Part shown: piece after piece, positions 25,701-58,500 of the stretch
How the letters are laid out: every line of letters starts with the position of its first letter
How positions within the stretch are numbered: the first letter of the stretch is position 1
Assembly (NCBI GenBank): GCA_052327205.1
Contig: CM126215.1
Coordinates: 44,144,001-44,208,000, forward strand
From: Somniosus microcephalus
Lineage: Eukaryota
Direction: 5' to 3'
DNA length: 64,000 nucleotides
Notes under the pieces: generated by a model
The model's database searches: none
The model's input: only the letters and a program-made list of their open reading frames with translations
What the model was told of the DNA's origin: nothing
Translations under genes and position numbers: made by a program

Positions 25701-28700
25701 ACCCCCAAGACATTGTCACACCCCCCAGACATTGCCAAGCCCCCCAGACACTACCCGACAACCCCAGACACGGCAGGACACCACCAGACAGCCCCAGACA
25801 CTGCCAGATATCTCCAGACACTGCCAGACAGTGCCCGGCACTGCCTGACACTGCCCGACACCCCCAAGCACTGCCTGACACCTCCAGACATTGCCCGACA
25901 CCCCCAGACATCCCCAGAAACTGCCTGACACCCCCAGAGACTGCCCGACACCCCCAGAGACTGCCCGACACCCCCAGACACTGCCGGACACCCCCAGGCA
26001 CTGCCCGACACCTCCAAGCACTGCCTGACACCTCCAGACACTGCCTGACACCACCAGACATTGCCCGACACCCCCAGACATCCCCAGAAACTGCCCGACA
26101 CACCCAGACACTGCCCGCCACCCCCAGACACTGCCCACCACCCCCAGACACTGCTGGACACCCCCAGACACTGCCCGACACCTCCAAGCACTGCCTGACA
26201 CCTCCAGACACTGCCTGACACCACCAGACATTGCCCGACACCCCCAGACATCCCCAGAAACTGCCCGACACACCCAGACACTGCCCGCCACCCCCAGACA
26301 CTGCCCACCACCCCCAGACACTGCCCGACACCCCCAACACTGCCCAGCACCCCCAACACCCCCCGACAGCCACAGACACCGCCAGACACCCACAGACACC
26401 GCCGGACACCCACAGACACTGCCAGGCACCCACAGACACTGCCAGGCACCCACAGACACGGCCCGACAACCCCAGGCATTGCCTGATACCCCAAGACACC
26501 GGCCGACACTCCAAGACACCGGCCGACGCCCCAAAACACCGTCCGACACCCCAAGACACCGGCCGACACCCCAAGACACCGCCCGACACGCCCAACACCC
26601 ACAGACACCGCCAGAGACCCAAAGACACCGCCAGAGACCCAAAGACACTGCCAGAGACCCACAGACACTGCCAGAGACCCACAGACACCGCCAGAGACCC
26701 ACAGATACCACCAGAGACCCACAGATACCGCCAGAGACCCAGACACCGCCAGAGAAGCACAGACACCGCCTGAGACCCACAGACACCGGCAGAGACCCAC
26801 AGACACCGCCCAACAGCCCGAGACACTGCCCGACAGCCCGAGACACTGCCTGACACCCCGAGACACTGCCCAACACCCCGAGACAACCCGACACCCCCAG
26901 AAACTGCCGGACAACCTCAGACACTGCCTGACACCCCCAGGCACTGGCTTACAACCCCAGACACTGCCTGACACCCCCAGAAACTGCCAGGCATACCCAG
27001 ACACTGCCAGGCACCCCCAGATATCCCCACACAATGCCTGACACGCCCAGACAGTGGTCGACACCCCACACACCGCCCAACACCCCCACACTCTGCACAA
27101 CACCCCCACACACCGCCCGACACCCCAACATACTCCCAGACACTGCCCGACACCCCCAGGCACTTCCTGAAACTCCCAGGCATGGCCTGACAAACCCAGA
27201 CACTCCCAGACTACCTAACACTCTCAGACACTGCCTGACAGCCCCAGACATCTCCAAACAACCCTAGTGGCCCCAAACACCCCCAGACACTGACATACAC
27301 CGCAGGACTCCACCAGACACTGCCCGACACCCCAAGACACTGCCCGACACCCCCAGGCACCCACGGACACCGCCAGCCACCCACGGACACCGCCAGCCAC
27401 CGCCGGATACTGCCAGACAGCCCCGGACACCACCAGACAGCCCTGGACACCGCCAGACAGCCCAGGACACTGCCAGACAGCCCAGGACACCGCCAGACTG
27501 CCCCGGACACCGCCAGACACCCACGGACACCGCCAGACACTGCCGGATACCGCCAGACAGCCCCAGACACCGCCAGACAGCCCTGGACACTGCCAGACAG
27601 CCCAGGACACCGCCAGACAGCCCAGGACACCGCCAGACTGCCCTGGCCACCGCCAGACAGCCCCGGACACCGTCAGACAGCCCCGGACACCGTCAGACAG
27701 CACCGGACACCACCAGACAGCACCGGACACCGCCAGACAGCACCGGACACCACCAGACAACCCCAGGCACTGCCGGACACCCCAAGGCACCGCCAGACGC
27801 CCACAGACACCGCCAGATGCCCACAAACAGCGCCAGATGCCCACAGACACCGCCAGATGCCCACAGACACTGCCAGATGCCCACAGACACCGCCAGATGC
27901 CCACAGGCGCCGCCAGATGCCCACAGACGCCGTCAGATGCCCACAGACGCCGCCAGACAACCCCAGACACTGCCTGACACCCCCAGACACTGCCTGACAC
28001 CCCCAGACACTGCCCGACACCCCCAGACACTGCCTGACACCCCCAGACACTGCCTGACACCCCCAGACACTGCCTGACACCCCAGACACTGCCTGACACC
28101 CCAAACACTGCCTGACACCCCCAGAAACACCCCCAGACACTGCCTGACAGCCCCAGACACTGCCTGACATCCCAGACACTTCCTGACACCCCAAGCACTG
28201 CCTGACACCCCAGAAACCCCGTGACACCCCCAGACACTGCCTGACACCCCAAACATTGCCTGACACCCCAAACATTGCCTGACACCCCCAGAAACCCCAA
28301 AACACCCCAGACACTGCCAGATAGCCTCAGGCTCTGCCAGACACCCCCAAGACATTGTCACACCCCCCAGACATTGCCAAGCCCCCCAGACACTACCCGA
28401 CAACCCCAGACACGGCAGGACACCACCAGACAGCCCCAGACACTGCCAGATATCTCCAGACACTGCCAGACAGTGCCCGGCACTGCCTGACACTGCCCGA
28501 CACCCCCAAGCACTGCCTGACACCTCCAGACATTGCCCGACACCCCCAGACATCCCCAGAAACTGCCTGACACCCCCAGAGACTGCCCGACACCCCCAGA
28601 GACTGCCCGACACCCCCAGACACTGCCGGACACCCCCAGACACTGCCCGACACCTCCAAGCACTGCCTGACACCTCCAGACACTGCCTGACACCACCAGA

Positions 28701-28960
28701 CATTGCCCGACACCCCCAGACATCCCCAGAAACTGCCCGACACACCCAGACACTGCCCGCCACCCCCAGACACTGCCCACCACCCCCAGACACTGCCCGA
28801 CACCCCCAGACACTGCCCGACACCTCCAAGCACTGCCTGACACCTCCAGACACTGTCTGACAAAACCAGACATTGCTCGACACCCCCAGACATGCCCAGA
28901 AACTGCCCAACACCCCCAGACATGGCCAGACACCTCCAGGCACTGCCAGACACCGCCAGA
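16723..28960. repeat. 10-bp-period satellite (CCAGACACTG/CCCGACACCC variants) with kb-scale higher-order duplications
   Basis: GACA core recurs every ~10 bp for 12.2 kb; rare marker GACTACCTAA at 19511, 22411, 24627 and 27209. Confidence 0.98.
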
Positions 28961-29360
28961 TGTAATGATATCAGCAAATAGAGATGGTATTTGCCTGTTC
29001 GATTATGATGCCTTAGCAGCATGATTGCAGGTATTGATTGCTTGTGCCTGACCAGCAGAGGTCATGTGACCGAGACAAGCAAGGCAGTGGAGTTTAGTTT
29101 CAGTTTCGTTCTAGATACATCACAGCATCATGTCTCCTGTAAAAGCTGTATAAAAGAGTTGAACAAAGCTTTAGATTAAAAGACATTCTCTTTCATAAAT
29201 GTCTCCTCATTGAACCCACAAAGAAATCAATGCATGGTGTCAGAAGTGACTGAAAGAGATGAAGAGAAAAGATCTGAAGTTACATCAGCTCTCCACAAAT
29301 TAGCAAGCCAAAAGAGAACATCGTTGCTTACCATTAGAGAATAGCTAACGAAGTGAAAAA

Positions 29361-34452: not shown

Positions 34453-37400
34453 AATAGTGTCCCCAAGAGTTTCCTTGGGACTAAGTGCGATTACTGTCCC
34501 CGAGAGGTTCCTTGGGAGTAAGCGTGACTAGTGTCCTGGAGAGGTTCCTTGGGAGTAAGCATGAATAGTGTCCCCGAGAGCTTCCTTGGGAGTAAGCATG
34601 AATAGTGTCCCCGAGAGCTTCCTTGGGAGTAAGCATGAATAGTGTCCACGAGAGATTCCTTGGGAGTAAGCATGAATAGTGTCCACGAGAGATTTCTTGG
34701 GAGTAAGCCTGAATAGTGTCACCGAGAGGTTCCTTGCGAGTAAGTGTGAACAGTGTCCCCGAGAGTTTCCTTGGGAGTAAGAGTGAATAGTGTCCCTGAG
34801 AGTTTCCTTGGGAGTAAGTGTGATTACTGTCCCCGAGAGGTTCCTTGGCGGTAAGCGTGACTAGTGTTCTGTAGAGGTTCCTTGGGAGTAAGCGATAATA
34901 GTGTCCCCCGAGAGGTTCCTTGGGAGTAAGCCTTAATAGTGTCGCCAAGAGGTTCCTTGGGAGTAAGCGTGAATAGTGTCCCCGAGAGATTCCTTGGGAG
35001 TAAGCATGAATAGTGTCCCTTAGACGTTCCTTGGGAGTAAGCGTGAAAAGTGTGGCCGAGAGATTCCTTGGGAGTAAGCGTGAATAGTGACCCCGAGAGG
35101 TTCCTTGGGAGTAAGTGTGAACAGTGTCCCCGAGAGGTTCCTTGGGAGAAAGTGTGAATAGTTCCCCCGAGAATTTCCTTGGGAGTAAGCGTGAACAGTG
35201 TCCCCGAGAGGTTCCTTCGGATTAAGTGTGAATAGTGTCCCCGAGAGGGTCCTTGGGATTAAGTGTGAATAGTATCGCCGAGAAGTACCTTGGGAGTAAG
35301 CGGCAATAGTGACCCCGAGAGGTTCCTTTGGAGTAAGTGTGAATAGTGTCCCCGAGAGGTTCCTTGGGTGTAAGTGTGAGTAGTGTCCCCGAGAGCTTCC
35401 TTGGGAGTAAGTGAGAATAGTGTCCCCGAGAGGTTCGTTGGGAGTAAGCGTGAATAGTGTCCCCGAGAGGTTCCTTGGGAGTAAGCGTGAATAGTGTCCT
35501 CGAGAGATTCATTGGGAGTAAGCATGAATAGTGTCCCCGAGAGGTTCCTTGGGATTAAGTGTGAGTAGTGTCCCCGAGAGGTTCCTTGGGAGTAAGCGTG
35601 AATAGTGTCGCCGAGAGGTTCCTTGGGAGTAAGCGTCAATAGTGTCGCTGAGAGGTTCCTTGGGCGTAAGCGTGAAATGTGTCGCCGAGAGGTTCCTTGG
35701 GAGTAAGCGTGAATAGTGTCCCCTAGACGTTCCTTGGGAGTAAGCGTGAAATGTGTCGCCGAGAGGTTCCTTGGGAACAAGCATGAATAGTGTCACCGAG
35801 AGGTTCCTTGGGAGTAAGTGGGAATAGTGTCCACAAGAGGTTCCTTGGGAGAAAGTGTGAATAGTGTCCCCTAGACGCTCCTTGGGAGTAAGCGTGAAAA
35901 GTGTGGCCAAGAGGTCCCTTGGGAGTAAGCGTGAATAGTGACCCCGAGAGGTTCCTTGGGAGTAAGTGTGAATAGTGTCCTCGAGAGGTTCCTTGGGAGA
36001 AAGTGTGAATAGTTCCCCCGAGAATTTCCTTGGGAGTAAGCATGAACAGTGTCCCCGAGAGGTTCCTTCGGATTAAGTGTGAATAGTGTCCCCGAGAGGG
36101 TCCTTGGGATTAAGTGTGAATCGTGTCATCAAGAAGTTCCTTGGGAGTAAGTGGCAATAGTGACCCAAGAGGTTTCTTGGGAGTAAGTGTGAATAGTGTC
36201 CCCGAGAGGTTCCTTGGGAGTAAGCATGAATAGTGTCCCCGAGAGCTTCCTTGGGAGTAAGCATGAATAGTGTCCATGAGAGATTCCTTTGGAGTAAGCC
36301 TGAATAGTGTCCCCGAGAGATTCCTTCAGAGTAAGTGTGAATAGTGTCCCCGAGAGGTTCCTTGGGTGTAAGTGTGAGTAGTGCCCCGAGAGCTTCCTTG
36401 GGAGTAAGTGTGAATAGTGTCCCCGAGAGTTTCGTTGGGAGTAAGCGTGAATAGTGTCCCCGAGATGTTCCTTGGGAGTAAGTGTGAATAGTGTCCTCGA
36501 GAGATTCATTGGGAGTAAGCATGAACAGTGTCCCCGAGAGGTTCCTTGGGATTAAGTGGGAGTAGTGTCCCCGAGAGTTTCCTTGGGAGGAAGTGTGAAT
36601 AGTGTCCTCGAGAGATTCATTGGGAGTAAGCGTGAATAGTGTCGCCGAGAGTTTCCTTGGGATTAAGCATGAATAGTGTCCCCGAGAGGCTGCTTGGGAG
36701 TAAGCGGCAACAGTGCCCCCTAGACGTTCCTTGGGAGTAAGCGGCAACAGTGTCCCCTAGAGGTTCATTGGGAGAAAGCGTGAATAGTGTCGCTGAGAGG
36801 TTCAATGGGAGAAAGTGTGAATAGTGCCCCCGAGAGTTTCCTTGGGAGTAAGCGTGAATAGTGTCCCCTAGATGTTCCTTGGGAGTAAGCGTGAAATGTG
36901 TCACCGAGAGGTTCCTTGGGAGTGCGCATGAATAGTGACCCCGAGGGTTTCATTGGGAGTAAGTGGGAATAGTGTCGCCGAGAGGTTCCTTGGGAGAAAG
37001 TGTGAATAGTGTGCCCGAGAGGTTCCTTGGGAGTAAGTGTGAATAGTGTCCCCGAGAGGTTCCTTGGGAGTAAGTGTGAATAGTGACCCCGAGAAGTTCC
37101 TTGGGATTAAGTGTGTATAGTTTTGCCGAGAAGTTCCTTGGGAGTAAGCGGCAATAGTGACCCCGAGAGGTTCCTTGGGAGTAAGCGTTAATAGTGTCCC
37201 CGAGAGGTTCCTTGGGAGTAAGCGTGAATAGAGTCCCTGAGAGGTTCCTTGGGAGTAAGCATTAATAGTGTCCCAGAGAGTTTCCTTGGGAGTAAGTGTG
37301 AATAGTGTCCACGATAGGTTCCTTCGGAGTAAGTGTGAATAGTGTCCGCAAGAGTTTCCTTGGGAGTAAGCGTGAATAGTGACCTCGAGACGTTCCTTAG

Positions 37401-40400
37401 GTAAGCGTAAATAGTGACCAAGAGGTTCTTTGGAGGAAGCGAGAATAGTGTCCCCGAAAGGTTCCTTGGGAGTAAGCGTGAAGTGACCTCGAGAGGTTCC
37501 TTGGGAGCAAGTGTGAATAGTGTGCAGAGAGGTTCCTTGTGAGTAAGCGTGAACAGTGTCCCCGAAAGGCTCTGGGGAGTAAGCCTTAATAGTGTCGCCG
37601 AGAGGTTCCTTGGGAGTAAGTAGGAATAGTGTCACCGAGAGGTTCCTTGGGAGAAAGTAGGAATAGTGTCACCGAGAGGTTCCTTGGGAGTAAGCGTGAA
37701 TAGTGTCCCCAAGAGGTTCCTTGGGATTAAGTGTGAATAGTGTCCCCGAGAGGTTCCTTGGGATTAAGTGTGAATAGTGCCGCTGAGAAGTTCCTTGGGG
37801 GTAAGCGGCAATCATGACCCCGAGAGGTTCCTTGGGAGTAAGCGATAATAGTGTCCCCTTGGGAGAAAGTGTGAATAGTGTGCCCGAGAGGTTCCTTGGG
37901 AGTAAGTGTGAATAGTGTCGCCAAGAAGTTCCTTGGGAGTAAGCGACAACAGTGACCCCGAGAGGTTCCTTGGGAGTAAGCGATAATAGTGTCCCCTTGG
38001 GAGAAAGTGTGAATAGTGTGCCCGAGAGGTTCCTTGGGAGTAAGTGTGAATAGTGTCGCCGAGAAGTTCCTTGGGAGTAAGCGACAACAGTGACCCCGAG
38101 AGGTTCCTTGGGAGTAAGCCTTAATAGTGTCCCGAGAGGTTCCTTGGGAGTAAGCATGAATAGTGTCCTCGAGAGGTTCCTTGGGAGTAAGCGTGAATAG
38201 TGTCCCCGAGAGGTTCCTTGGGAGTAAGCGTTAATAGTGTCCCCGAGAGGTTCCTTGGGAGTAAGTGTGAATAGTGTCCGCGATAGGTTCCTTCGGAGTA
38301 AGCGTGAATCGTGTCCGCGAGAGGTTTCTTGGGAGTAAGCGTGAATAGTGACCTCGAGACGTTCCTTAGGTAAGCGTAAATAGTGACCAAGAGGTTCTTT
38401 GGAGGAAGCGAGAATAGTGCCCACGAGAGGTTCCTTGGGAGTAAGCGTGAAGTGTCCTCGAGAGGTTCCTTGGGAGTAAGTGTGAATAGTGTCCAGAGAG
38501 GTTCCTTGGGAGTAAGCGTGAATAGTGTCCCCGAGAGCTTCCTTAGGAGTAAACGTGAATAGTGTCCCCTAGAGGTTCATTGGGAGAAAGCGTGAATAGT
38601 GTCGCCAAGAGGTTCAATGGGAGTAAGCGTCAATAGTGTCCCCGAGAGGTTCCTTGGGAGTAAGCATGAATAGTGTCCCCTAGAGGTTCATTGGGAGAAA
38701 GCGTGAATAGTGTCGCCGAGAGGTTCAATGGGAGTAAGCGTCAATAGTGTCCCCGAGAGGTGCCTTGGGAGTAAGCGTGAATAGTGACCCCGAGACATTC
38801 CTTAAGTAAGCAGAAATAGTGACCCTGAGAGGTTCCTTGGAGGAAGCGAGAATAGTGTCCCCGAGAGGTTCATTGGGAGTAAGCGAAAATTGTGACCCCA
38901 AGAGTTTCCTTGGGAGTAAGCGTGAATAGTGACCCCGAGAGGTTCCTTGGGAGTAAGCGTGAATATTTTCCCGAGAGGTTCCTTGGGAGTACGCGTGAAT
39001 AGTGCCCCCGAGAGCTTCCTTGTGAGTAAGCGTGAAGTGACCTCGAGAGGTACCTTGGGAGTAAGTATGAATAGTGTTCTGAGAGGTTCCTTGTGAGTAA
39101 GCGTGAACAGTGTCCCGGAAAGGTTCTGGGGAGTAAGCCTTAATAGTGTCGCCGAGAGGTTCCGTGGGAGTAAGCGGCAATAGTGTCCCTGAGAGGTTGC
39201 TTGGGAGAAAGCGTGAATAGTTTCCCGAGAGGTTCCTTGGGAGTACGCGTGAATAGTGCCCCCGAGAGCTTCCTTGTGAGTAAGCGTGAAGTGACCTCGA
39301 GAGGTTCCTTGGAAGTAAGTATGAGTAGTGTTCTGAGAGGTTCCTTGTGAGTAAGCGTGAACAGTGTCCCGGAAAGGTTCTGGGGAGTAAGCATCAATAG
39401 TGTCGCTGAGAGGTTCCTTGGGAGTAAGCGGCAATAGTGTCCCTGAGAGGTTGCTTGGGAGAAAGCGTGAATAGTGTCCCCTAGATGTTCCTTGGGAGTA
39501 GGCATGAAATGTGTCGCCAAGAGGTTCCTTGGGAGTGAGCGTGAATAGTGACCCCGAGAGGTTCATTGGGAGTAAGTGGGAATAGTGTCCAGAGAGGTTC
39601 CTTGTGAGTAAGCGTGAACAGTGTCCCCGAAAGGTTCTGGGGAGTAAGCCTTAGTAATGTCGCCGAGAGGTTCCTTGGGAGTAAGCGTGAATAGTGACCC
39701 CGAGAGGTTCCTTGGGAGTAAGTGGGAATAGTGTCACTGAGAGGTTCCTTGGGAGAAAGTGTGAATAGTGTCCCCGAGAGGTTCCTTGGGAGTAAGCGTG
39801 AATAGTGTCCCCAAGAGGTTCCTTGGGATTAAGTTTGAATAGTGTCCCCGAGAGGTTCCTTGGGATTAAGTGTGAATAGTGCTGCTGAGACGTTCCTTGG
39901 GGGTAAGCGGCAATAGTGACTCCGAGAGGTTCCTTGGGAGTAAGCCTTAATAGTGTCCCCGAGAGGTTCCTTGGGAGAAAAAGTGAATAGTGTCCCGGAG
40001 AGGTTCCTTGGGAGTAAGCTTTAATAGTGTCCCCCGAGAGGTTCCTTGGGAGTAAGTGTGAATAGTGTCGCCGAGAAGTTCCTTGGGAGTAAGCGGCAAT
40101 AGTGACCCCGAGAGGTTCCTTGGGAGTAAGCCTTAATAATGTCCCCGAGAGGTTCCTTGGGAGAAAGCGTGAATAGTGACCCCGAGAGCTTCCTTGGGAG
40201 TAAGCATGAATAGTCTCCTCGAGAGGTTCCTTGGGAGTAAGCGTGAATAGTGTCCCCGAGAGGTTCCTTGGGAGTAAGCGTGAATGGTGACCTCGAGACG
40301 TTCCTTAGGTAAGCGTAAATAGTGACCGAGAGGTTCTTTGGAGGAAGCGAGAATAGTGTCCCCGAGAGGTTCCTTGGGAGTAAGCGTGTAGTAACCTCGA

Positions 40401-41260
40401 GAGGTTCCTTGGGAGTAAGTGTGAATAGTGTCCAGAGAGGTTCCTTGTGAGTAAGCATGAACAGTGTCCCCAAAAGGTTCTGGGGAGTAAGCCTTAATAG
40501 TGTCGCCGAGAGGTTCCTTGGGAGTAAGCGGCAATAGTGTCCCCTAGACGTTCCTTGGGAGTAATCGTGAAATGTGTCGCCGAGAGGTTCCTTGGGAGTA
40601 AGTGTGAATAGTGACCCCGAGAGGTTCCTTGGGAGTAAGTGGGAATAGTGTCACCGAGAGGTTCCTTGGGAGAAAGTGTGAATAGTGTCCCTGAGAGGTT
40701 CCTTGGGAGTAAGCGTGAATAGTGTCCCCAAGAGGTTCCTTGAGATTAAGTGTGAATAGTGTCCCCGAGAGGTTCCTTGGGATTAAGTGTGAATAGTGCC
40801 ACTGAGAAGTTCCTTGGGGGTAAGCGGCAATAGTGACCTCGAAGGGTTCCCTGGGAGTAAGCCTTAATAGTGTCCCCGAGAGGTTCCTTGGGAGAAAGCG
40901 TGAATAGTGTCCCGGAGAGGTTCCTTGGGAGTAAGAGATAATAGTGTCCCGCGAGAGGTTCCTTGGGAGAAAGTGTGAATAGTGTGCCCGAGAGGTTCCT
41001 TGGGAGTAAGTGTGAATAGTGTCCCCGAGAGGTTCCTTGGGAGTAAGCGTTAACAGTGTCGCCGAGAGGTTCCTTGGGAGTAAGTGTGAATAGTGTCCCC
41101 GAGAGGTTCCGTGGGAGTAAGTGTGAATAGTGACCCCAAGAGGGTCCTTGAGAGTAAGCGTGAATAGTGTCCCCAAGAGGTTCCTTGGGAGTAAGCTTGA
41201 ATAGTGTCCCTGAGAGTTTCCTTGGGAGTATGCGTGAGTAGTGACCCGAGAGGTTCCTTG
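34453..41260. repeat. 37-bp satellite (AATAGTGTCCCCGAGAGGTTCCTTGGGAGTAAGCGTG)
   Basis: About 185 tandem units; the array resumes after the CR1 insertion at 50204-50275. Confidence 0.98.
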
Positions 41261-41265
41261 CTCCA

Positions 41266-41560
41266 CCACAGCGGCGGACCTGGGAGTGTATTGAGGAGCA
41301 CGGCTGCAGTTTAAAAGCGGCGGCAGTGAACGAGGCCCGACCACAGCGGTGGACCTGGGAGTGGATTGAGGAGCGCGGCGGCAGATTAAAAGTGACGGCA
41401 GCGAATGAGGCCCGACAACAGCGGTGGACCTGGGAGTGGATTGAGAAGCGCGGCAGCAGTTTAAAAGCGGCGGCAGCGAACGAGGCTCGACCACAGCGGC
41501 GGACCTGGGAGTGGATTGAGGAGCGCGGCGGCAGATTAAAAGCAGCGGCAGCGAACGAGG
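41266..41560 (+). repeat. Four 75-bp CpG-rich monomers in the CR1 5' UTR
   Basis: Units begin at 41266, 41341, 41416 and 41491 (CCACAGCGGYGGACCTGGGAGTGGATTGAGGAGCGCGGC...). Confidence 0.92.
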
Positions 41561-41795
41561 TTTACTAATTCAGCAGCGGGAGAGAGAGGTAAAAAGTAAT
41601 CAAAATGTGACGTCACCAGAAAGCAGGTAAGTGATTGGTTGGTGAGCATTTCCCTCTTTTTAAACTTTAACTCTGTGGTTTATAGTTACTAAGGTGTCTC
41701 TGGTGTAGCGGGGACTGATGGTAAACCATTTAGCTGTAGTGTAATTAGTGGGATTGATTGATTTAATTTAAATTCAATTAATTAAAGGGTAAGTC

Positions 41796-42746
41796 ATGGC
41801 AGGACAGCCCGGCCACGTGGTATGCTCCTCCTGCGATATGTGGGAACTCAGGGACAGTTCCTGTGTCCCTGACAACTGTGTGTGCAGGAAGTACACCCAG
41901 CTGCAGCTACTGACAGACCGCATTGCGGTGCTGGAGCTGCGATTGGATGCATACTGGAGCATTTGCGATGCTCGGGACGTCGTGAATAGCACGTTTACGG
42001 AGTTGGGCACACCGCAGGTAGAGGTTGAACAGGCAGAAAGGGAATGGGGGACCAACAGGCAGAGTACTAGGCGCAGGCAGGTAGTGCAGGGATCCCCTGT
42101 GGACATCCCCCTCTCAAACAGATACACCACTTTGAGTGCTGTTGGGGGGCATGGCTTACCAGAGGAAAGCAACAGCAGCCAACTTCCTGGCAGCAGGGGT
42201 GGCTCTGCTGCACAGGACGGGAGGAAAAAGAGGGGTAGAGCTATAGTAATAGGGGATTCTATTGTAAGGGGAATAGATAGGCGTTTCTGCGGCTGCAAAC
42301 GAGACTCCAGGATGGTGTATTGCCTCCCTGGTGCAAGGGTCAAGGATGTCTCAGAGCGGCTGCAGAACATCTTGGAAGGGGAGGGTGAACAGCCAGTTGT
42401 CGCGGTGCATATAAGCAGCAACGATATAGGTAAAAAGCGGGATGAGGTCCTAAAAGCGGAATATAGGGAGTTAGGAGGTAAATTAAAAAATAGGACCTCA
42501 AAGGTAGTAATCTCAGGATTGCTACCAGTGCCATGTGCTAGTCAGAGTAGAAATAGAAGGATATTTCAGCTGAATACGTGGCTAGAGTAATGGTGCAACG
42601 GGGAGGGATTCAAGTTCCTGGGACATTGGAACTGGTTCTGGGGGAGGTGGGACCAGTTCAAACTGGATGGTTTGCACCTGGGCAGGGCTGGAACTGATGT
42701 CCTAGGGGGAGTGTTTCCTAGTGCTCTGGGGGAGGGTTTAAAATAA
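41796..42746 (+). pseudogene. CR1 ORF1 (zinc finger/leucine zipper plus SGNH esterase), one premature stop
   Basis: CSSC...CRKY finger, VIGDSIVRG and DGLHL esterase motifs; in-frame TAA at 42588-42590; natural stop at 42744-42746. Confidence 0.9.
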
Positions 42747-44060
42747 AATGGCAGGGGGTTGGGAACCTGAGCAGGGAGACGGAGGAAAGGGAAACAAGGA
42801 TAAAAGCAAAAGATAGGAAGGAGAAAAACAAAAGTGGCAGTCAGAGAAATCAACGGTTTAAATCAAACGCAGCCACAGTAAATAATAATTCTAATAGGTC
42901 TAAGAGCGTTAAAAAAACAAGCCTGAAGGCTTTGTGTCTTAATGCGAGGAGCATTCGTAATAAGGTGGATGAATTGGCTGCGCAAATAGAGGTAAACGAA
43001 TATGATTTGGTTGGGATTACGGAAATGTGGCTCAAGGATGGCCAAGGCTGGGAACTCAACATCCAGGGGTATTCGATATTCAGGAAAGATAGGCAAAAAG
43101 GAAAGGGAGGTGGGGTAGCATTACTGGTTAAAGAAGGGATTAACACAATTATAAGGAAGGATATTAGCTCTGATGATGTGGAATCTGTATGGGTAGAATT
43201 AAGAAATACTAAGAGGCAGAAAACATTAGTGGGAGTGGTATATAGACCTCCAAACAGTAAGGCGGAGGTTGGGAATGGCATTAAAAGGGAAATTAAAGAA
43301 GCGTGCAATAAGAGCACAATAAAATCATGGGTGACTTTAATCTACATATAGATTGGGCTAACCAAATTAGTAACAATACTGTGGAGGAGGAATTCCTGGA
43401 GTGTTTACGGGATGGTTTCCTGGGCCAACCAGAGATCAGGCCATCTTAGACTGGGTATTATGTAACGAGAAAGGATTAATTAGCAATCTTGTTGTACGAG
43501 GCCCCTTGGGTCGGAGCGATCATAATATGAACGAATTCTTCATTAAGATGGAGAATGAAGTAGTTGACTCAGACTAGGGTCCTAAATTTAAATAAAGGAA
43601 ACTACGATGGTCTGAGGAGCGAGTTGGGTAGGATTGATTGGGGAATGTCACTCAAAGGGTTGACGGTGGATAGGCAATGGCAAACATTCAAAGACCAAAT
43701 GGATGAACTACAGAATTTGTTCATCCCAGTTTGGCATAAAAATAAAATAAAAAAGGTGACTCAACCGTGGCTAACGAGGGGAATTAGGGATAGCATAAGA
43801 TCCAAGGAGACGACATATAAATTGGCCAGAAAAAGCAATAATCCTGAGGATTGGGAACAGTTTAGGATTCAACAAAGGAGGACAAAGGGATTAATTAAGA
43901 AAGGGAAAATAGAATATGAGAGTAAGCTTGCAGGGAACATAAAAACTGACTATAAAAGCTTTGTAGATATGTGAACAGAAAAAGATTGGTGAAGTCAAGC
44001 GTAGGTCCCTTGCAGTCAGAATCAGGGGAATTTATAATGGGGAACAAAGAAATAGCAGGC
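42737..44060 (+). pseudogene. CR1 ORF2 5' part (APE endonuclease), frameshifted
   Basis: CLNARSIRNK, ITE.W, GGGVAL and VYRPP motifs; broken after ~43320. Confidence 0.9.
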
Positions 44061-47000
44061 TGTGGCAGATCGCCACCTAAACGGGCGCAATCCACTTTTC
44101 CGTCCGTGGACAATAAATCAGGCACCTTGCCTTTAAGAGGCATGCTGCCTTTAAGGCATTTCAAAGGAGTGGGCGTCGCCCTCAGTGTGTATATAAAAGC
44201 GTGGGCGTCGCCCTCATTGGGCTTCCGGTTTTAGCAGAGAGAGGAGCTGGAGCAGCCATCTCTCAAGAGAATGTAATAAAAAGCCATGTGTTTCTCAGAT
44301 TGGTTCGGCCTCCATTCGTGTTCCGCGGCAGCCGCAACATTGGTGACCCCGACGCTCAGAACATATTCCGAGCACTGCAATGGCGGACACGAACGCAGTT
44401 TCCGTGAAACTGCCGGAGTTTTGGGAAAACCAGCCCGAAGCCTGGTTCCGCCAAGCTGAGTCCCGATTCCGGCTGCGACACATCACCACAGATGGGACGA
44501 CGTATGACTACCTCGTCGCATCACTCGGTAGCTCCACAGTCACGAAGGTCTGGATAGCGCTGCAGAACTCACCAGAGGAGGGCAAGTATGCACATCTTAA
44601 GGCCGTGCTCCTTAAAAAATTTACGACCTCGACATATCAGCGAAACTGCCGCCTCCTCGACCTTCCAGGCCTCGGTGACGCCTTACCGTCAGACCTCCTC
44701 TCCCACATGCTCTCACTCACCGACGAGAGCCCAGCTGGGTCCCTTTTCCGCACGCTGTTCATCCGCCAGCTACCTCCCAGCATCCGCCCAGCGATCGTGG
44801 CGTCCGGCCTCACGGACCTAGAAGCCCTGGCCGACGAGGCCGACAAGCTGCTGTCCGCTCACTCCAGTCGCGACGTCGCTCCGGACCTGGCAGCCACAGC
44901 CTGGGCACGCCCCTCACCGGCCACCACGCGGCCACAAGGCTCAGCCACGGGGCCTACGCGCCCCACAAACCCAGGCTACTGTTACTACCATGCACGGATT
45001 GGCGCCAGGGCACAACGTTGCACACCTCCCTGCTCCTTCAAGTCCACCCCCGTACCAGCCCCCGCGATGGCCGTGGGCCACGCGGGTTCCCTGCTGTACG
45101 TCACAAATGACAAAACCGGCCGCCGGTTCCTGTGCGACACTGGAGCTCAGCACAGCATTATCCCGGCCTCCGCCCTCGACATCCAAAAGGGCGAACGAGG
45201 ACAGGCGCTGGCTGCCGCTAACGGTTCGGATATCCGGACGTACGGCACCCGCACAGTCACCCTCGACCTTGCTGGTCGCTGCTACCGATGGGAGTTCATT
45301 ACTGCCAAGGTACTCTCCCCTCTCATCGGTGCAGATTTCCTGTGCGCACATGGCCTACTGGTAGACATCCCTCGACACCACCTCGTGGACATGAACACCA
45401 TATCCCCCATCCTGGGCACCATGGCCCCCCGTCAACCCGCCGACATGGCGTCACAGTGCCATGCCCGGGCCACGGATGACTACTCGGCACTCCTGGCCGA
45501 ATTCCTGGCCCTCACCAATCCGACCTTCTCTGCGGAGGTCGCCAAACACGGGGTGGAACACTTCATTCCCACTACAGGCCCCCCAGTGTATGCCCACGCC
45601 CGCAGGCTGGACCCGGCCAAACTGGAGATCGCGCGGACCGAGTTTGCCACTATGGAACAGCTCGGCATCATCCGCCACTCCAACAGTCCCTGGGCCTCCC
45701 CACTCCACATCGCCCCCAAACCAGGCGGGGGTTGGCGCCCCTGCGAGGATTACCGCCGCCTCAATGACGCCACCACCCCTGATTGGTATCCTGTGCCGCA
45801 CATTCAGGACTTCTCAGCTAGACTGGCTGGCCGCTCAGTCTTTTCCAAAGTCGACCTGGTGCGCGGCTACCACCAAGTCCCTGTCCACCCCGTGGACGTC
45901 CCCAAGACGGCCGTAATCACCCCCTTCGGGCTTTTTGAGTTCCTGCGGATGCCCTTCGGCCTCAAAAACTCGGCCCAGGCATTCCAACGGCTCATGGACT
46001 CGGTCCTTCGGGACATGAAGTTCCTGTTCGTATACCTGGACGACATCCTGGTAGCCAGTTCCTCCAAGCAGGAACACCTCGAACATCTTCGCATCCTGTT
46101 CGGGCGCTTCAGCGACCACGGGCTCATTCTCAGCCCAGCCAAGTGCCAGTTCGGCCTGGACAAGATCGATTTCCTCGGCCACCACATTACCCATGCTGGG
46201 GCCATTCCCCTGCCCACCAAGGTGCAGGCCGTCCATCAATTTCCCCGCCCCACCACCATCAAAGGACTCCAGGAGTTCCTCGGGATGGTGAACTTCTACA
46301 ACCGCTTCATTCCCAAAGCGGCGTCCCTCATGAGGCCTCTGTATGAAGCCCTCCGGGGCAGGAGCGGCAAGATGGCGGTCGAATGGACGGCAGACGTATC
46401 AGCCGCCTTCAACTCCACCAAGACCGTGCTCGCCGACACCACCCTGCTCGCGCACCCACGGCCCAATGCCAGAGTAGCACTCACCACGGACGCTTCCGAC
46501 CATGCGGTCGGCGCCGTGTATGAGCAGTGGGTCGACGGCGCCTGGCAACCACTTGCCTTCTTCAGCCTCCAACTACACCCCCCGGAGGTCAAGTACAGCA
46601 CCTTCAACCGCGAGCTTCTCGCGCTGTACCTGGCGGTCCGCCATTTTCGGTTTTTGCTGGAGGGTCACCCCTTCACTGCGTTTGTCGACCACAAACCCTT
46701 GACATTCGCAATGGCAAAGACAACCGACCCCTGGTCCGCCAGGCAGCAGCGCCAGCTCGCGGCAGTGTCTGAGTTCACCACGGACATCCAACATGTCTCT
46801 GGCCGAGACAACGTGGTAGCCGACTGCCTCTCCCGCCCCGCCATCCACGCCGCACACCTGGCAGTCGACTACACTCAACTTGCAGCAGACCAGCTCACGG
46901 ACCCTGATCTGCTCTCCGCACCTACCAAGCTACCAGGGCTACGTCTGGTTGATGTCACCTGCGGCCCGACCGCAGTCACGGTCAAGTGCGACATATCCCT

Positions 47001-48482
47001 ATCTCAACCTCGGCCCGTCGTCCCAGCGTCCTGGCGCTGCCGGGTATTCGAGATTCTCCACAACCTCTCCCACCCCGGCGCCCGCGCAGCCATCAAATTG
47101 GTAGCCAACCGCTTTGTCTGGCGCGGCCTTCGCAAGGATGTGCGTACTTGGGCCAACTCCTGCCTAGCCTGTCAATGGGTCAAGGTGCAGCAACACACGA
47201 AAGCACCCCTCGAGGAGTTCACCGTCCCTTCACGTAGATTCGACCACATCCACGTGGACATCATCGGGCCCCTGCCGCCGTCGCAAGGCCACACGCACTT
47301 GCTGACGATCGTCGACCGCACCACGCGCTGGCCCGAGGCAATTCCACTGACCTCTACCACCACCGCTGACATCGCCAGAGCCTTCGTCAGCACCTGGGTC
47401 GCACGGTTCGGCGTCCCCTCCGACATGACGTCGGACAGAGGTCTGCAATTTACCTCTGAACTTTGGACCGCCATCGCACGCAATCTCGGGGTGACCATTC
47501 ACCACACCACAGCGTACCACCCCCAAGCCAACGGACTGTGTGAGTGGTTCCACAGATCCTTGAAGGCATCTCTTCGAGCCAGCCTCCAGGACGGCGCCTG
47601 GACCGACCGACTCCCGTGGGTCCTCCTCGGCCTGCGCTCTGCGGTTAAAGAAGATCTCCAAGCATCGGCAGCAGAGCTCGTGTACAGCCAGCCGCTGCGC
47701 GTACCCGGCGAGTTCCTGCCCACCGCCACGACACCCTGGTCAGCCGACCAGCAACGCCACGACTTCGCCTCACCGGCGCTACAGTTCGCCCCGGTGCCCA
47801 TTGCCCGGCACGGCGAATCCGCCTCACATGTCCCGCTAAGCCTGCACCAGGCACGGTTCATTTTCGTCCGGCACAACGCCCACCGCGGACCTCTTCAACC
47901 CCCGTACGACGGGCCCTACAAAGTGCTACAGGCTGGGGACAAATTTTTCGCCCTACAAGTGGGCGACAGGACTGAAAAAGTGTCGGTTGACCGACTTAAG
48001 CCAGCGCACTCGGAGTCCGGTGAGCAGGTCCCAGTAGCTCGCCCACCGCCACGCGGCCGACCGGCCCTCAAGCCAGTACACTCGGCTGCTCCACGCCTGG
48101 CCGTTCCACGTCCACCGGCGTCCTACAAGAGCCGCTTCGGCCGGCCCATCAGACCGCCGCACCGTTTCGTCCACACCTCCTAAGCGGATTCTGGGGGGAG
48201 CTGTGTGGCGGATCGCCACCTAAATGGGCGCAATCCACTTTTCCGTCCGTGGACAATAAATCAGGCACCTTGCCTTTAAGAGGCATGCTGCCTTTAAGGC
48301 ATTTCAAAGGAGTGGGCGTTGCCCTCAGTGTGTATATAAAAGCGTGGGCGTCGCCCTCATTGGGCTTCCGGTTTTAGCAGAGAGAGGAGCTGGAGCAGCC
48401 ATCTCTCAAGAGAATGTAATAGAAAGCCATGTGTTTCTCAGATTGGTTCGGCCTCCATTCGTGTTCCGCGGCAGCCTCAACA
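44061..48482 (+). mobile_element. Ty3/Gypsy LTR retrotransposon B, tRNA-Trp PBS
   Basis: 279-bp LTRs at 44061-44339 and 48204-48482 (about 5 substitutions), TG..CA ends, TSD AGGC, PBS TGGTGACCCCGACG at 44341, G-rich PPT. Confidence 0.97.
44380..48183 (+). CDS. Uninterrupted gag-pol polyprotein (1267 aa) of Gypsy B
   Basis: Gag KLPEFW and CYYH..C..PC knuckle, FLCDTGA protease, YLDD RT, TDASD/DHKPL RNaseH, HHCC plus DDE integrase, GPY motif. Confidence 0.93.
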   Translation: MADTNAVSVKLPEFWENQPEAWFRQAESRFRLRHITTDGTTYDYLVASLGSSTVTKVWIALQNSPEEGKYAHLKAVLLKKFTTSTYQRNCRLLDLPGLGDALPSDLLSHMLSLTDESPAGSLFRTLFIRQLPPSIRPAIVASGLTDLEALADEADKLLSAHSSRDVAPDLAATAWARPSPATTRPQGSATGPTRPTNPGYCYYHARIGARAQRCTPPCSFKSTPVPAPAMAVGHAGSLLYVTNDKTGRRFLCDTGAQHSIIPASALDIQKGERGQALAAANGSDIRTYGTRTVTLDLAGRCYRWEFITAKVLSPLIGADFLCAHGLLVDIPRHHLVDMNTISPILGTMAPRQPADMASQCHARATDDYSALLAEFLALTNPTFSAEVAKHGVEHFIPTTGPPVYAHARRLDPAKLEIARTEFATMEQLGIIRHSNSPWASPLHIAPKPGGGWRPCEDYRRLNDATTPDWYPVPHIQDFSARLAGRSVFSKVDLVRGYHQVPVHPVDVPKTAVITPFGLFEFLRMPFGLKNSAQAFQRLMDSVLRDMKFLFVYLDDILVASSSKQEHLEHLRILFGRFSDHGLILSPAKCQFGLDKIDFLGHHITHAGAIPLPTKVQAVHQFPRPTTIKGLQEFLGMVNFYNRFIPKAASLMRPLYEALRGRSGKMAVEWTADVSAAFNSTKTVLADTTLLAHPRPNARVALTTDASDHAVGAVYEQWVDGAWQPLAFFSLQLHPPEVKYSTFNRELLALYLAVRHFRFLLEGHPFTAFVDHKPLTFAMAKTTDPWSARQQRQLAAVSEFTTDIQHVSGRDNVVADCLSRPAIHAAHLAVDYTQLAADQLTDPDLLSAPTKLPGLRLVDVTCGPTAVTVKCDISLSQPRPVVPASWRCRVFEILHNLSHPGARAAIKLVANRFVWRGLRKDVRTWANSCLACQWVKVQQHTKAPLEEFTVPSRRFDHIHVDIIGPLPPSQGHTHLLTIVDRTTRWPEAIPLTSTTTADIARAFVSTWVARFGVPSDMTSDRGLQFTSELWTAIARNLGVTIHHTTAYHPQANGLCEWFHRSLKASLRASLQDGAWTDRLPWVLLGLRSAVKEDLQASAAELVYSQPLRVPGEFLPTATTPWSADQQRHDFASPALQFAPVPIARHGESASHVPLSLHQARFIFVRHNAHRGPLQPPYDGPYKVLQAGDKFFALQVGDRTEKVSVDRLKPAHSESGEQVPVARPPPRGRPALKPVHSAAPRLAVPRPPASYKSRFGRPIRPPHRFVHTS

Positions 48483-48486
48483 AGGC

Positions 48487-50111
48487 CAACTAAATACATA
48501 TTTTGGTTCTGTCTTCACAAAGGAGGACACAAATAACCTCCCAGAGATGCCGGGAGTCTGATGAAAGGGTGGAACTGAAAGAAATCAGTATTTGTAGGGA
48601 AATGGTGTCAGGAAAATTGATGGGACTGAAGGCCGATAAATCCCCAGGGCCTGATAATCTACATCCTAGGTTACTTAAGGAAGTGGCCCTAGAAATAGTA
48701 GATGCATTGCTGGTCATCTTCCAGAACTCGATAGACTCTGGAACAGTACCCATGGATTGGAGGGTAGCTAATGTTACCCCACTATTCAAAAAAGGTGGTA
48801 GAGAAAAAGCGGGGAATTATAGACCGGTAAGCCTGACATTGGTAGTGGGGAAAATGCTAGAGTCCATTATAAAAGATGTTATAGCAGAGCACTTGGAAAG
48901 CAGTGACAGGATTGGACAAAGTCAACATGGATTTACAAAAGGTAAATCGTGCTTGACTAATCTACTGGAATTTTTTGAGGATGTAACTGGTAACTGGTAA
49001 AATAGATGGAAAACCAGTGGATGTGGTGTATTTGGACTTTCAGAAGGCTTTCGATAAGGTCCTGCATTAGAGATTAGCGTGCAAAATTAAGGCACATGGG
49101 ATTGGGGGCAAGGTATTGACATGGATAGAGAACTGGTTGGCGGATAGAAAGCAAAGAGTTGGAATAAACGGGTCGTTTTCTGAGTGGCAGGCAGTGACTA
49201 GTGGGGTACCGCAAGGATCGGTCCTAGGACCCCAGCTGTTCACAATATATATTAATGATCTGGACGAGGGAATTGGATGCAATATCTCCAAATTTGCAGA
49301 CGACACAAAGCTGGGAGGGAGGGTATGCTGTGAGGAGGATGTCATGAAACTCCAGTACGATTTGGACAGGTTGGGTGATTGGGCAGAAACATGGCAAATG
49401 CACTATAATGTGGATAAATGTGAGGTTATCCACTTTTGTGGCAAAAACAGGAAGGCAGATTATTATTTGAATGGCAATAGACTGGGAGAAGGGGAAGTGC
49501 AAAGAGACCTGGGTGTCCTTGTGCACCAGTCACTGAAGGTAAGCATGCAGGTGCAGCAGGCGGTTAAGAAGGCAAATGGTATGTTGGCCTTCGTAGCAAG
49601 AGGGTTTGAGTACAGGAACAAGGATGCCTTGGTGAGACCGCACCTTGAGTATTGTGTGCAGTTTTGGTCGCCTTATCTGAGGAAGGACGTTCTTGCCATG
49701 GAAGGAGTGCAGCGAAGATTCACCAGGCTGATACCTGGGATGGCAGGAATGACGTATGAGGAGAGATTTTGTCGATTGGGCTTATACTCACTGGAGTTTA
49801 GAAGATTGAGAGGGGGTCTCATCGAATCCTATAAAATTCTGTCAGGCCTGGACAGACTAGATGCAGGAAGGATGTTTCCAATGGCAGGGGAGTCCAGAAC
49901 CAGGGGTCATAGTCTAAGGATAAGGGGTAAGCCATTTAGGACTGAGATGAGGAGGAATTTCTTCACCCAGAGAGTGGTGAACCTGTGGAATTCTCTGCCA
50001 CAGAGGGCGGTGGAGGCCAGTTCATTAAATATATTCAAGAAGGAGTTGGATATATTTCTTAAGGCTAAAGGGGTCAAGGGATATGGGGAGAAGGCAGGGA
50101 CATGGTACTGA
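48487..50111 (+). pseudogene. CR1 ORF2 3' part (reverse transcriptase), frameshifted
   Basis: KSPGPD, NYRPVSLT, GVPQGSVLGP, KFADDTK; joins 44060 as NKEIAG|QLNTYFGSVF. Confidence 0.92.
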
Positions 50112-50203
50112 ATTTGGATGATCAGCCATGATCTCATTGAACGGCGGAGCAGGCTCAAGGGGCCGATTGGCCTATTCCTGCTCCTATCTTCTATGTTTCT
50201 ATG

Positions 50204-54130: not shown

Positions 54131-55538
54131 ATGGACACGAACGCCGTCACGCTGAAACTGCCACAGTTCTGGGAGCCCAGTTCGCCATTCGGAACATCAA
54201 CGCGGATCAGGCCCGTTATTATTACGTGGTCTCCGCCCTCGACAGTGCAATTGCATCCCGGATTATCAGCCTCATCGGTAGTCCTCCTACTGACAGCAAG
54301 TATGATGCAATTAAGGCGCGGTTGCTTCAGGTTTTCGGGCTATCAAAGTCAGAGCGTGCTCGCCGGCTCATCACGCTGCCCGGCCTCGGGGACTCCAAAC
54401 CGTCCGAGCTCATGAGCCAAATGCTCACGCTCTTGGGTGCTGAACCAGAATGTTTCCTCTTCCGGGAGCTTTTCCTCTATCAACTGCCTGAACAGGTTCA
54501 GGCTGCCCTGGCCAGCTCCGACATTACTGACTGCGCCAAGCTTGCGGCTGAAGCCGATAAGATTTTCATGGTTACCCAGCAGTGCTGCGCGGCCACGAGG
54601 CGCCCACCCCCCCACAGACACGGTCCCGGTTTCTCCTACAGCGGGCTGGTGCTCCTACCACACCCGTTTTGGCGCGAAAGCACGATGCTGCCGCTCCCCC
54701 TGCAGTTTTTTGCCAAAAGAAAAACAAGGCGGCACAGGCGGCGCCCCTGGCGATGGATGACCAAATCTAACGGGCGTTCCGCGGTGGCGATGGCCGTCGG
54801 TTCTACGGGGAAACTCCTCTATATCACCGATTCCCTCTTGGGCCGCCATTTCCTTTGTGACACCGGGGCGTAGTGTAGCATTCTACCTGCGTCGAAGCTC
54901 GACACGCAGACTGGGAACCTCGGTTTTTCCCTCGTAGCGGCTAATGGCGCAGCTATTCGAACGTTCCGAAAGCGGCGGGTCGAAGTCTGTTTCGGCGGTC
55001 AGTGCTTCTTTTGGGATTTTGTCACAGCTACAGTCTCACAGCCTATCCTAGGGGCAGGTTTTCTGTGTGCCAACAGCCTGCTAGTCGATGTCTGACACCA
55101 CCGGCTGATCAACGTGGCCACCTTCCACTCGATCCCGTGCTTCCACGGTACCTCCGTGGCGCGTTCCATTGCCTGTGCTTTTCCTCCTCCAGATGACTTC
55201 ACGCGGCTCCTCGGGGAGTTTCCGGAGCTGACAAGGCCCACCTTCTCCTCTTCAGCGACGAAACATGGTGTTGAACATCACATCACCACTACTGGCTCCC
55301 CGGTTTATGCGTGGGCTAGAAGGCTCGAGCCCGGCAAGCTTGCAGCTGCGAAGGGGAAGTTCGCCACTATGGAGCGGCTCGGCATCATTAGGCGATTGAA
55401 CAGTCCCTGGTCTTCGCCTCTCCACATCCTGCCGAAACCAGGCGGTGGCTGGCAGCCATGCGGTGACTACTGATGCCTCAACGACGCCACCACTCCAGAT
55501 CGGTACCCAATCCCGCATATCCAGGACTTCTCGGTACA
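54131..55538 (+). pseudogene. Gypsy C gag-protease-RT start, degenerate
   Basis: MDTNAVTLKLPQFWE start, FLCDTGA; deletion/frameshifts and stops at 54871, 55093 and 55471. Confidence 0.9.
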
Positions 55539-58500
55539 AGTCGGACGGTTTACACCTGAACCAGAGGGGAACCAATATCCTTGCGGGGAGGTTTGCTAGC
55601 ACTGCTCGGGGGGTTTAAACTAACTTGGCAGGGGGATGGGGTACAGAGTGGAGCTATAGTAGGGGGTGATTTACAGCCAAATACAGAGGGAAAAACAAGT
55701 CAGCTGGGAAGGCAAAGCAAATATGTGAAGGCAAAAGAGAATATGGCAGGGCTGGAAGGCATTTATTTTAATGCAAGGAGTCTTGCAAATAAGGTGGATG
55801 AACTGAAGTTGTTGAACACATGGGAGTACGATATTGTTGCTATCACGGAGACATGGTTGAGGGAGGGTCAGGACTGGCAGCTCAATATTCCGGGGTATAG
55901 AATCTTCAGGCGAGACAGAGGGGGGTGTAAAAGGGGAGGGGGTGTTGCAATATTAATTAAGGAGTCAATTACTGCTGTAAGGAGGGATGATATATTAGCG
56001 GGTTCCTCTAATGAGGCAATATGGGTAGAACTTAAAAACAAAAAGGGGGCAAGCACTTTGCTGGGAGTGTACTATAGGCCCCCAAACAGTCAGGGGGAGA
56101 TAGAGGAACAGATATGTAGGCAAATCTCAGAAAAGTGCGAAAATAATAGGGTAATAATAGTGGGGGATTTCAACTTCCCCAATATAAATTGGGATAGTCA
56201 GAGTGTGAAAGGCTTCGAGGGTGCAGAATTCTTAAAGTGCATCCAGGAGAGCTTTTTGAGCCAACATGTAGAAAGTCCTACAAGAGAGGGGGCGGTACTG
56301 GACCTAATTCTGGGGAACGTAGCCGGGCAAGTGGTGGAAGTGTCAGTAGGAGAGCATTTTGGCGACAGTGACCACAATTCGGTGAGATTTAAGGTGGTCA
56401 TGGAAAAAGACAAAAACGGCCCGGAAATAAGGGTTCTAAATTGGGGGAAGGCCGATTTTAATATGATAAGGCAGGATCTGGCCAAATTGGACTGGGAGCA
56501 GCTACTTATAGGAAAATCCGCATCAAAACAGTGGGAGACTTTCAGAAGGGAAATAGAGAGAGTACAACGCCAACATGTTCCTGTAAAGGTCAAGGGTGGG
56601 ACCAACAAGCAAAGGGAACCTTGGATGACAAGGGATATACAAAAATGCATTAGAAATAAAAGGGGGGCTTTTGGCAGTTACAAAAGACTAAAGACGGAAG
56701 AAGCCCTAGAGGAGTATAAAAAATGCAGGGGCATACTTAAAAAAGAAATTAGGAGGGCGAGGAGGGGCCATGAAATAACACTGGCGAGCAAAATAAAGGA
56801 AAATCCTAAGATGTTTTATAAGTATATTAAGGGCAAGAGGATAACCAGGGAAAGGGTAGGGCCCATTCGGGACCAAAGTGGCAATCTGTGTGTAGAGCCA
56901 GATGATGTAGGCAGGGTTTTAAATGAATTTTTTGCATCTGTGTTCACTATGGAGAAAGACGATGCAGACATAGAAATCGGGCAAGGGGGCTGTGACATAC
57001 TTGAACATATTAGCATCGAGAGGGAGGAGGTGCTAGCGGTTTTAGCAGGCCAAAAAGTGGATAAATCCCCAGGCCCGGACGAGATGTATCCCAGGCTGCT
57101 GTGGGAGGCAAAGGAGGAGATTGCAGGGGCTCTGACACAAATTTTCAGAACCTCTCTGGCCACAGGGGATGTACCAGAGAACTGGAGAACAGCTAACGTA
57201 GTACCATTATTCAAGAAGGGTAGCAGGGATAAACCAGGGAATTACAGGCCAGTGAGCCTAACATCTGTGGTAGGGAAATTATTGGAAAAAATTCTGAGGG
57301 ACAAAATTAGTCTCCACTTGGAGAGGCAAGGATTAATCAGGGATAGTCAGCATGGCTTTGTCAAGGGTAAATCATGTCTGACAAATCTGATTGAATTTTT
57401 CGAGGAGGTGACTAGGGGGGTGGATGAGGGAAATGCTGTGGATGTGGTTTACATGGACTTCAGTAAAGCTTTTGACAAAGTCCCGCATAGGAGACTGGTC
57501 AAGAAGGTAAGAGCCCATGGGATCCAGGGTGCCTTGGCACGTTGGATCCTAAACTGGCTGAGTGGCAGGGGGCAGAGGGTGATGGTCGAAGGTTGCTTTT
57601 GTGACTGGAAGCCTGTGTCCAGTGGGGTACCTCAGGGATCGGTGCTGGGTCCCTTGTTGTTTGTGATCTACATAAATGATTTGGATGAGAATGTAAAAGG
57701 TATGATCAGTAAGTTCGCAGATGACACGAAAATTGGTGGGGTGGTAAATTGTGAGGAGGAAAGCCTCAGGCTACAGGAAGATATAAACGGGTTGGTCAGA
57801 TGGGCGGAAAAGTGGCAAATGGAATTTAACCCTGAAAAGTGCGAGGTGATGCATTTTGGACGGACAAATAAGGCAAGGGAATACACAATGAGTGGTAGGA
57901 CCCTAGGAAGTACAGAGGGTCAGAGGGACCTTGGTGTACATGTACATAGATCCCTGAAGGCAGCGGAACAGGTCGATAAGGTGGTTGAAAAGGCATATGG
58001 GATACTTGCCTTCATTAGCCGAGGCATAGAATATAAGAGCAGGGAGGTTATGATGGAGCTGTACAAAACGCTGGTGAGGCCACAGCTGGAGTACTGTGTG
58101 CAGTTCTGGTCGCCTCACTATAGGAAGGATGTGATTGCTTTGGAGAGGGTGCAGAGAAGATTCACCAGGATGTTACCTGGGATGGAGCGCCTCAGCTATG
58201 AAGAGAGGCTGGACAGGCTGGGGTTGTTTTCCTTGGAGCAAAGAAGGCTGAGGGGGGACCTGATTGAGGTGTACAAAATGATGAGGGGCATAGATAGGGT
58301 AGATAAAGAGGAACTTTTCCCCTTAGTAGGGGGGTCAATAACAAGGGGGCATAGATTCAGGGTAAGGGGCAGGAGATTTAGAGGGGATTTGAGGAGGAAC
58401 TTTTTCACCCAGAGGGTGGTTGGAATGTGGAACTCAATGCCTGAAAGGGTGGTGGAGGCAGGAACCCTCACAACATTCAAGAAGCATTTGGATGAGCACT

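Follow-up and report, generated by a model that had tools for sequence, protein, structure and literature searches.

A conserved U_UUA_AAC heptamer points to probable −1 ribosomal frameshifting between ORF1 and ORF2 of esterase-type CR1 retrotransposons

Most work on how LINEs produce their ORF2 protein concerns L1 and SART1, in which production proceeds by reinitiation. In retroviruses and coronaviruses, slippery heptamers followed by a 3′ structure drive −1 ribosomal frameshifting. The CR1 copy described here raises the question of which of these routes leads to its ORF2; the original prediction for this locus had been a gag–pol-like fusion of ORF1 and ORF2, produced at a heptamer that directly precedes the ORF1 stop codon.

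The CR1 copy and its ORF1–ORF2 junction

The 64,000-nucleotide stretch of DNA analysed here (the window) contains a copy of one CR1 family (family A) and a second copy of another (family B), the endonucleases of which are 52% alike (Table 1). The best named ORF1 hits suggest that the host is probably a cartilaginous fish. The bounds of the family A copy follow from homology to locus L019, which begins at 41376, and from a 3′ end at about 50200 that was placed from sequence. Its domains, together with matching junctions in consensus rows labelled as CR1, identify the element as an esterase-type CR1 LINE. The esterase of ORF1 scored below the Pfam cut-off on the truncated window copy (GDSL, E = 9e-4), and most of the 121 ORF1 homologues carry PF13472; in ORF2 the endonuclease scored above the cut-off and the reverse transcriptase (RT) motif is visible in the translation. 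Because of the premature stop at 42588, frameshifts in ORF2 and the insertion of an LTR element, the window copy cannot itself make an ORF1–ORF2 fusion.

Table 1 Features of the window that bear on the ORF1–ORF2 junction
Feature	Position	Strand	Basis or remark
Near full-length, dead CR1 LINE (family A), with an LTR element inside	41376..50200	+	Homology to L019; RT motifs
ORF1, 316 codons: zinc-finger/coiled-coil part and SGNH esterase	41796..42746	+	Domain matches, homologues
Premature TAA in ORF1 of the window copy	42588-42590	+	
Putative slippery heptamer (window copy T_TTA_AAA, family T_TTA_AAC)	42737..42743	+	
Open −1 linker from heptamer to endonuclease, basic, low-complexity	42737..42922	+	
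ORF1 stop abutting the heptamer	42744..42746	+	
+1-frame AUG opening a 22-codon ORF, not conserved, falls short of ORF2	42748..42816	+	
G-run at +11 to +15 and second G-run at +18 to +20, candidate linear 3′ stimulator	42754..42763	+	
AP-endonuclease domain of ORF2, −1 frame, broken by an indel near 43320	42923..43348	+	PF03372
Gypsy-type LTR retrotransposon within CR1 ORF2	44061..48482	+	Two LTRs, 98.2% alike (279 bp)
Second, diverged CR1 (family B): T_TTA_AAC and TAA	55614..55623	+	G-run 55631-55635

Several other repeats surround the junction. The inserted Gypsy-type element has a single frame of 1278 codons with RT, RNase H and integrase, and AGGC stands on both of its flanks. The CR1 5′ UTR (41245-41570) is built of tandem units of about 90 bp, and a different tandem array lies upstream of it (35000-41250). 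Long GC-rich, strongly skewed stretches at 1-7000 and 17000-29000 are probably satellite arrays, and remains of a Gypsy-like RT (54900-55550) lie directly before the family B copy, which is 5′-truncated.

At the junction, ORF1 ends GGT TTA AAA TAA with the heptamer in phase, exactly as the original prediction had read it. The final A of that heptamer proved private to the window copy. The family site is U_UUA_AAC, since 29 of 29 other copies (the best of 2,478 candidates, 40 of which were scored) have TTTAAAC followed by TAA, and 5,383 of the 5,533 RNA reads mapped to the window have C at 42743. Between 42722 and 43348 the −1 frame is free of stops, and it arrives at the N(ARS) of the endonuclease 68 codons past the heptamer, so that the predicted open frame stands at a length of 68 codons in place of 65. 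Its first AUG, at 43025, lies within the endonuclease domain. The earlier statement that no AUG precedes this domain holds for the window copy, and for 29 of 53 sampled copies of its family; the other 24 have a linker Met, mostly at one polymorphic GTG/ATG site. An AUG in the +1 frame, which the prediction had overlooked, was rejected as a start for ORF2 because its frame closes after 22 codons, and an AUG of this kind is absent from most other families. The G-rich tract noted just 3′ of the heptamer is present (TGGCAGGGGGTTGGG, from 42749).

Conservation of the heptamer and of the −1 frame

The same word was found in all 30 family B loci, the window locus included. This family (L032–L060) is very young, with many near-identical copies in which ORF2 is open to the end of the locus. 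A pattern of ORF1 motifs that is blind to the heptamer matched the genome 25,625 times, compared with 8 matches for a control; among 50 of these loci (30 first-listed and 20 picked for variety), 38 have TTTAAAC and a stop, and 12 have a junction that is damaged or missing through single changes or deletions. A query lacking the L-N ending gave 15 further loci, every one with the heptamer. All loci pooled comprise 184 distinct segments, which fall into 13 multi-copy clusters and 11 singletons, and the word is present in 157 of the 173 copies within clusters.

Codon use separates the heptamer from its surroundings. The last Leu codon of ORF1 is TTA in all 13 shark-type lineages (12 clusters and L104, 56–90% alike); each of the four other Leu columns that are invariant draws on four codons or more, and TTA accounts for 5 of the 81 other Leu codons. 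About ten other third positions are also invariant within the shark-type set alone, and we therefore added four amniote-type loci, which come from metagenome contigs and were located by profile match. The heptamer is present in four of the five amniote-type loci that cover the end of ORF1, the fifth being degraded, and upstream of it the shark and amniote types are only 43% identical. The 17 lineages share every one of the seven heptamer bases, whereas none of 23 neighbouring third positions is invariant (the best reaches 16 of 17); the lineages are related by descent, so these counts are not independent events. Both comparisons bear out the conservation at synonymous sites that the prediction called for. 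The junction word also occurs in CR1 consensus rows in the parts covered of the PMC13343379 supplement, from alligator, crocodile, bearded dragon, bullfrog and coelacanth as well as bowfin, chimaera, rays and sharks; the 22 rows listed cover up to 400 characters each and so attest presence only, and include 4 chance matches in L2/Rex1 and 1 match at a 5′ end. Taken together, these alignments argue that the word is a real, deeply conserved −1 frameshift signature.

The −1 linker is open in relatives too. In the nine best-resolved lineages (five thin or G-run-scrambled clusters, which lack a clean majority, were left out), the stop lies 149, 155, 164, 170, 173, 197, 200, 206 or 212 nt from the endonuclease; the nine linkers of nine lengths are all in −1 phase and free of stops, and the other frames contain 3–8 and 1–10. 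In-frame AUGs shift position or vanish: six of the nine lineages have them, at +2, +41, +50, +122, +146 and +149, and three have none. The linker 5′ of the first AUG is open as well, over 39–48 codons in three lineages. A young subfamily (8 copies, 96–100% alike) has no AUG because its linker is 15 nt shorter, in frame. Of the 17 lineages, 5 have an in-frame AUG no more than one codon from the stop, namely 1 of 13 shark-type lineages and all four amniote-type loci (0–1 codons past the stop). In one shark-type family (that of L181) and in the amniote-type locus L097, a −1-frame AUG overlaps the ORF1 stop as UAAUG, so that frameshift and SART1-type signals coexist there. Across the 17 lineages we found neither a conserved AUG overlapping or adjoining the ORF1 stop, as in SART1, nor an AUG or near-cognate start common to the −1 frames.

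To what extent the site persists in more distant elements can be followed in the ORF1 C-termini. Among near homologues (121 examined, 88 with the anchor motif), 73 of 81 end in L-N, and the ORF1 alignment has a terminal Asn throughout. The 150 hits of a profile search yielded 104 usable C-termini, of which 48 are LN, 12 GN, 3 KN and 1 NL, and the remaining 40 are dipeptides that fit no heptamer. G or K precedes Asn in 15 of the 21 Asn endings other than LN (binomial 1e-6 if independent), and in 10 of 19 relatives with longer tails K-N occupies the corresponding position, with the stop 2–12 codons later. LN, GN and KN are the peptides of U_UUA_AAC, G_GGA_AAC and A_AAA_AAC, three of the four heptamers named as the shiftiest in the passages covered of PMC5009743. 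The distant GN- and KN-type proteins carry almost no names; DNA for them was obtained neither from genome contigs, viral contigs nor own-genome sequence. The LN/GN/KN swap is therefore a lead at the level of protein, as distinct from a test of G_GGA_AAC and A_AAA_AAC codons. Separate scans that used alignments of the shark type and the amphibian type gave no hits.

The 3′ element, RNA and possible routes to ORF2

The original prediction had drawn attention to the G-rich tract and had suggested a check for a pseudoknot or G-quadruplex. We found no conserved 3′ RNA fold in the 17 lineages (z from −2.5 to +1.8, in folding that covers neither pseudoknots nor long-range pairing) and no stable hairpin 5–9 nt downstream at the window junction (z −1.1 and 0.0); present instead is a linear G-run of fixed position, with G at +11 to +14 in 16–17 of 17 lineages, a second run at +18 to +20 and few C residues to pair with it. 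Quadruplex patterns, the other form of structure considered, are two-tier in only 10 of the 17 lineages and three-tier in one, and G4Hunter scores near the site (1.2–3.55) exceed the remainder of the stretch in 17 of 17. The run could be partly explained by Gly in the −1 peptide; the Gly codon there is GGG or GGC in 16 of 17 lineages, and the preceding base is also G. According to the passages covered of PMC5009743, a 2016 review, some frameshift stimulators, a minority, begin 12–15 nt past the shift site and may be linear elements bound by protein, and natural G-quadruplex stimulators were not known at the time. We give the G-run at +11 an even chance of being a stimulator that acts as a linear element.

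Two runs of raw RNA reads from one study, with the species matched by label only to a run that contains 93% of the words of family B, cover the junction to a depth of hundreds to thousands of reads in families A and B. Neither run contains a splice-like joint or a cluster of starts at the junction, or an indel in the heptamer above thresholds of 3% and 5%. Because the reads pool many copies and both strands, what this result rules out is limited to a spliced or slipped form that is common. Approximately 3 in 100 reads carry an extra G before the heptamer, and these match genomic variants. Among the genomic copies themselves, a one-base gain before the heptamer fuses ORF1 to ORF2 in L150, L154, L157 and L138 of family B, with 508 codons open in three of them. 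We rejected such fusions as a family feature, as they look like private indels, and a search for naturally fused CR1 families among longer homologues gave two single-member gene models, a weak negative.

As ORF1 ends on the heptamer and ORF2 lies one base back, the enzyme is likely to be made by slippage, as an extension of ORF1. We put the probability that CR1 ORF2 is made by −1 ribosomal frameshifting at U_UUA_AAC, as an ORF1–ORF2 fusion, at about 0.8 on these comparisons of sequence. The gag–pol-like fusion originally proposed appears well supported, because the heptamer is conserved synonymously, the −1 linker is open and no AUG is conserved. Most ribosomes would stop at the adjacent stop codon and release free ORF1p, and a fraction would slip to yield a fusion of ORF1, linker, endonuclease and RT; tandem slippage of the Leu- and Asn-tRNAs would take the peptide from ...G-L-N to L-K-W-Q-G. 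The G-run might stimulate this step as a linear element, possibly helped by pausing at the adjacent stop, and lineages with an in-frame AUG may also use reinitiation. More tentatively, and at clearly less than even odds, we suggest that the esterase-type CR1 elements of jawed vertebrates, together with relatives that use G_GGA_AAC or A_AAA_AAC, obtain their RT by a previously undescribed fold-free −1 shift, in which a linear G-run (as a G-quadruplex or bound by protein) sits at the mRNA entry channel.

Termination–reinitiation as in L1 and SART1 would have ribosomes resume in the −1 frame just past the stop, with or without an AUG, and with the conserved bases serving the restart. ORF2 of L1 and SART1 depends on translation of ORF1, and initiation in L1 is thought to be AUG-independent, in the passages covered; a restart right past the stop would likewise keep the linker open. 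Besides the two UAAUG lineages, three more amniote-type loci have their AUG one codon later; as all four amniote-type loci have an AUG at most one codon past the stop, reinitiation stays in play as a parallel route. As the general explanation we nevertheless consider it unlikely, because it leaves the in-phase X_XXY_YYZ word and the LN/GN/KN swap unexplained; the ten relatives in which K-N precedes the stop by several codons, and the lack of a start common to the 17 −1 frames, also argue against it.

Two further explanations were considered. The heptamer might be kept for another reason, such as a C-terminal Leu-Asn or a cis-element in DNA or RNA, with ORF2 translated from an AUG of its own or encoded on a separate RNA. 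The invariant Asn and the AUGs of several lineages agree with this, but a need of the protein would not hold TTA, AAC and the T before them constant, three lineages and the young subfamily have no AUG before the endonuclease, and the RNA runs show no joint or start at the junction; we regard this explanation as very improbable. Still harder to credit is a joining of the frames in RNA, through splicing or through slippage of the polymerase on the G-run or on the T/A run. It could draw on the G8 run before the heptamer in family B, on the in-frame fusion of L150, L154 and L157 by an extra base and on the extra-G reads; however, the upstream G-run is missing in other families, the two runs are without heptamer indels at the thresholds used or junction joints, and the extra-G reads fit genomic variants. 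Slippage of the ribosome at U_UUA_AAC thus remains our preferred reading.

Relation to known systems

CR1 is a major component of genomes outside mammals and makes up 11.8% of the chicken genome, in the passage covered. If frameshifting is confirmed, its enzyme would be tethered to an esterase protein, with the ratio of ORF1p to ORF2p set by the frameshift; the N-terminus of ORF2p would differ from current annotations, which bears on any CR1 retrotransposition assay, and the junction would be a natural −1 site of very wide distribution whose 3′ element is unusual. We found no report of frameshifting in CR1 in the literature covered, which does not extend to the classic CR1 papers (1997, 2001) or a 2003 survey. 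A paper on turtle CR1 is said to describe overlapping ORFs and may already suggest a frameshift (about one chance in three). The closest described elements are esterase-type CR1 (ORF1 type IVB, subgroup 7 of PMC4120745; Canonical-CR1 of PMC13343379), which have the same zf/lz and esterase ORF1 and an APE and RT ORF2; in the passages covered of both papers the word 'frameshift' has 0 occurrences and the production of ORF2 is not addressed.

Frameshifting is not new to LINEs as a class, because a review figure legend (PMC5911963) states that Dictyostelium TRE5-A and TRE3-A both need a −1 frameshift for ORF2, and it has been suggested, in the passage covered, for Paramecium elements; the TRE elements belong to another clade and another host. 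Coronavirus 1a/1b and retroviral gag–pol likewise carry U_UUA_AAC in phase where the upstream ORF ends, and a polymerase ORF in the −1 frame, and the part covered of PMC5009743 names this heptamer as the IBV site. Unlike those sites, CR1 has no conserved 3′ hairpin, and its stop abuts the heptamer. In the 3′ element, CR1 is closer to the PRRSV nsp2 frameshift, in which nsp1beta and PCBP act on CCCANCUCC, a linear motif that is rich in homopolymer and, in the source passage covered, lies 11 nt 3′ of the slippery site; the CR1 G-run likewise starts at +11. The PRRSV motif is C-rich and binds PCBP, whereas that of CR1 is G-rich and has no known binder, so that the likeness is an analogy only. L1 and SART1 share with CR1 a bicistronic LINE RNA, in theirs with ORF2 dependent on ORF1, and UAAUG is found in two CR1 lineages as well; they make a separate ORF2p, whereas what CR1 conserves is the heptamer and the −1 frame rather than an AUG.
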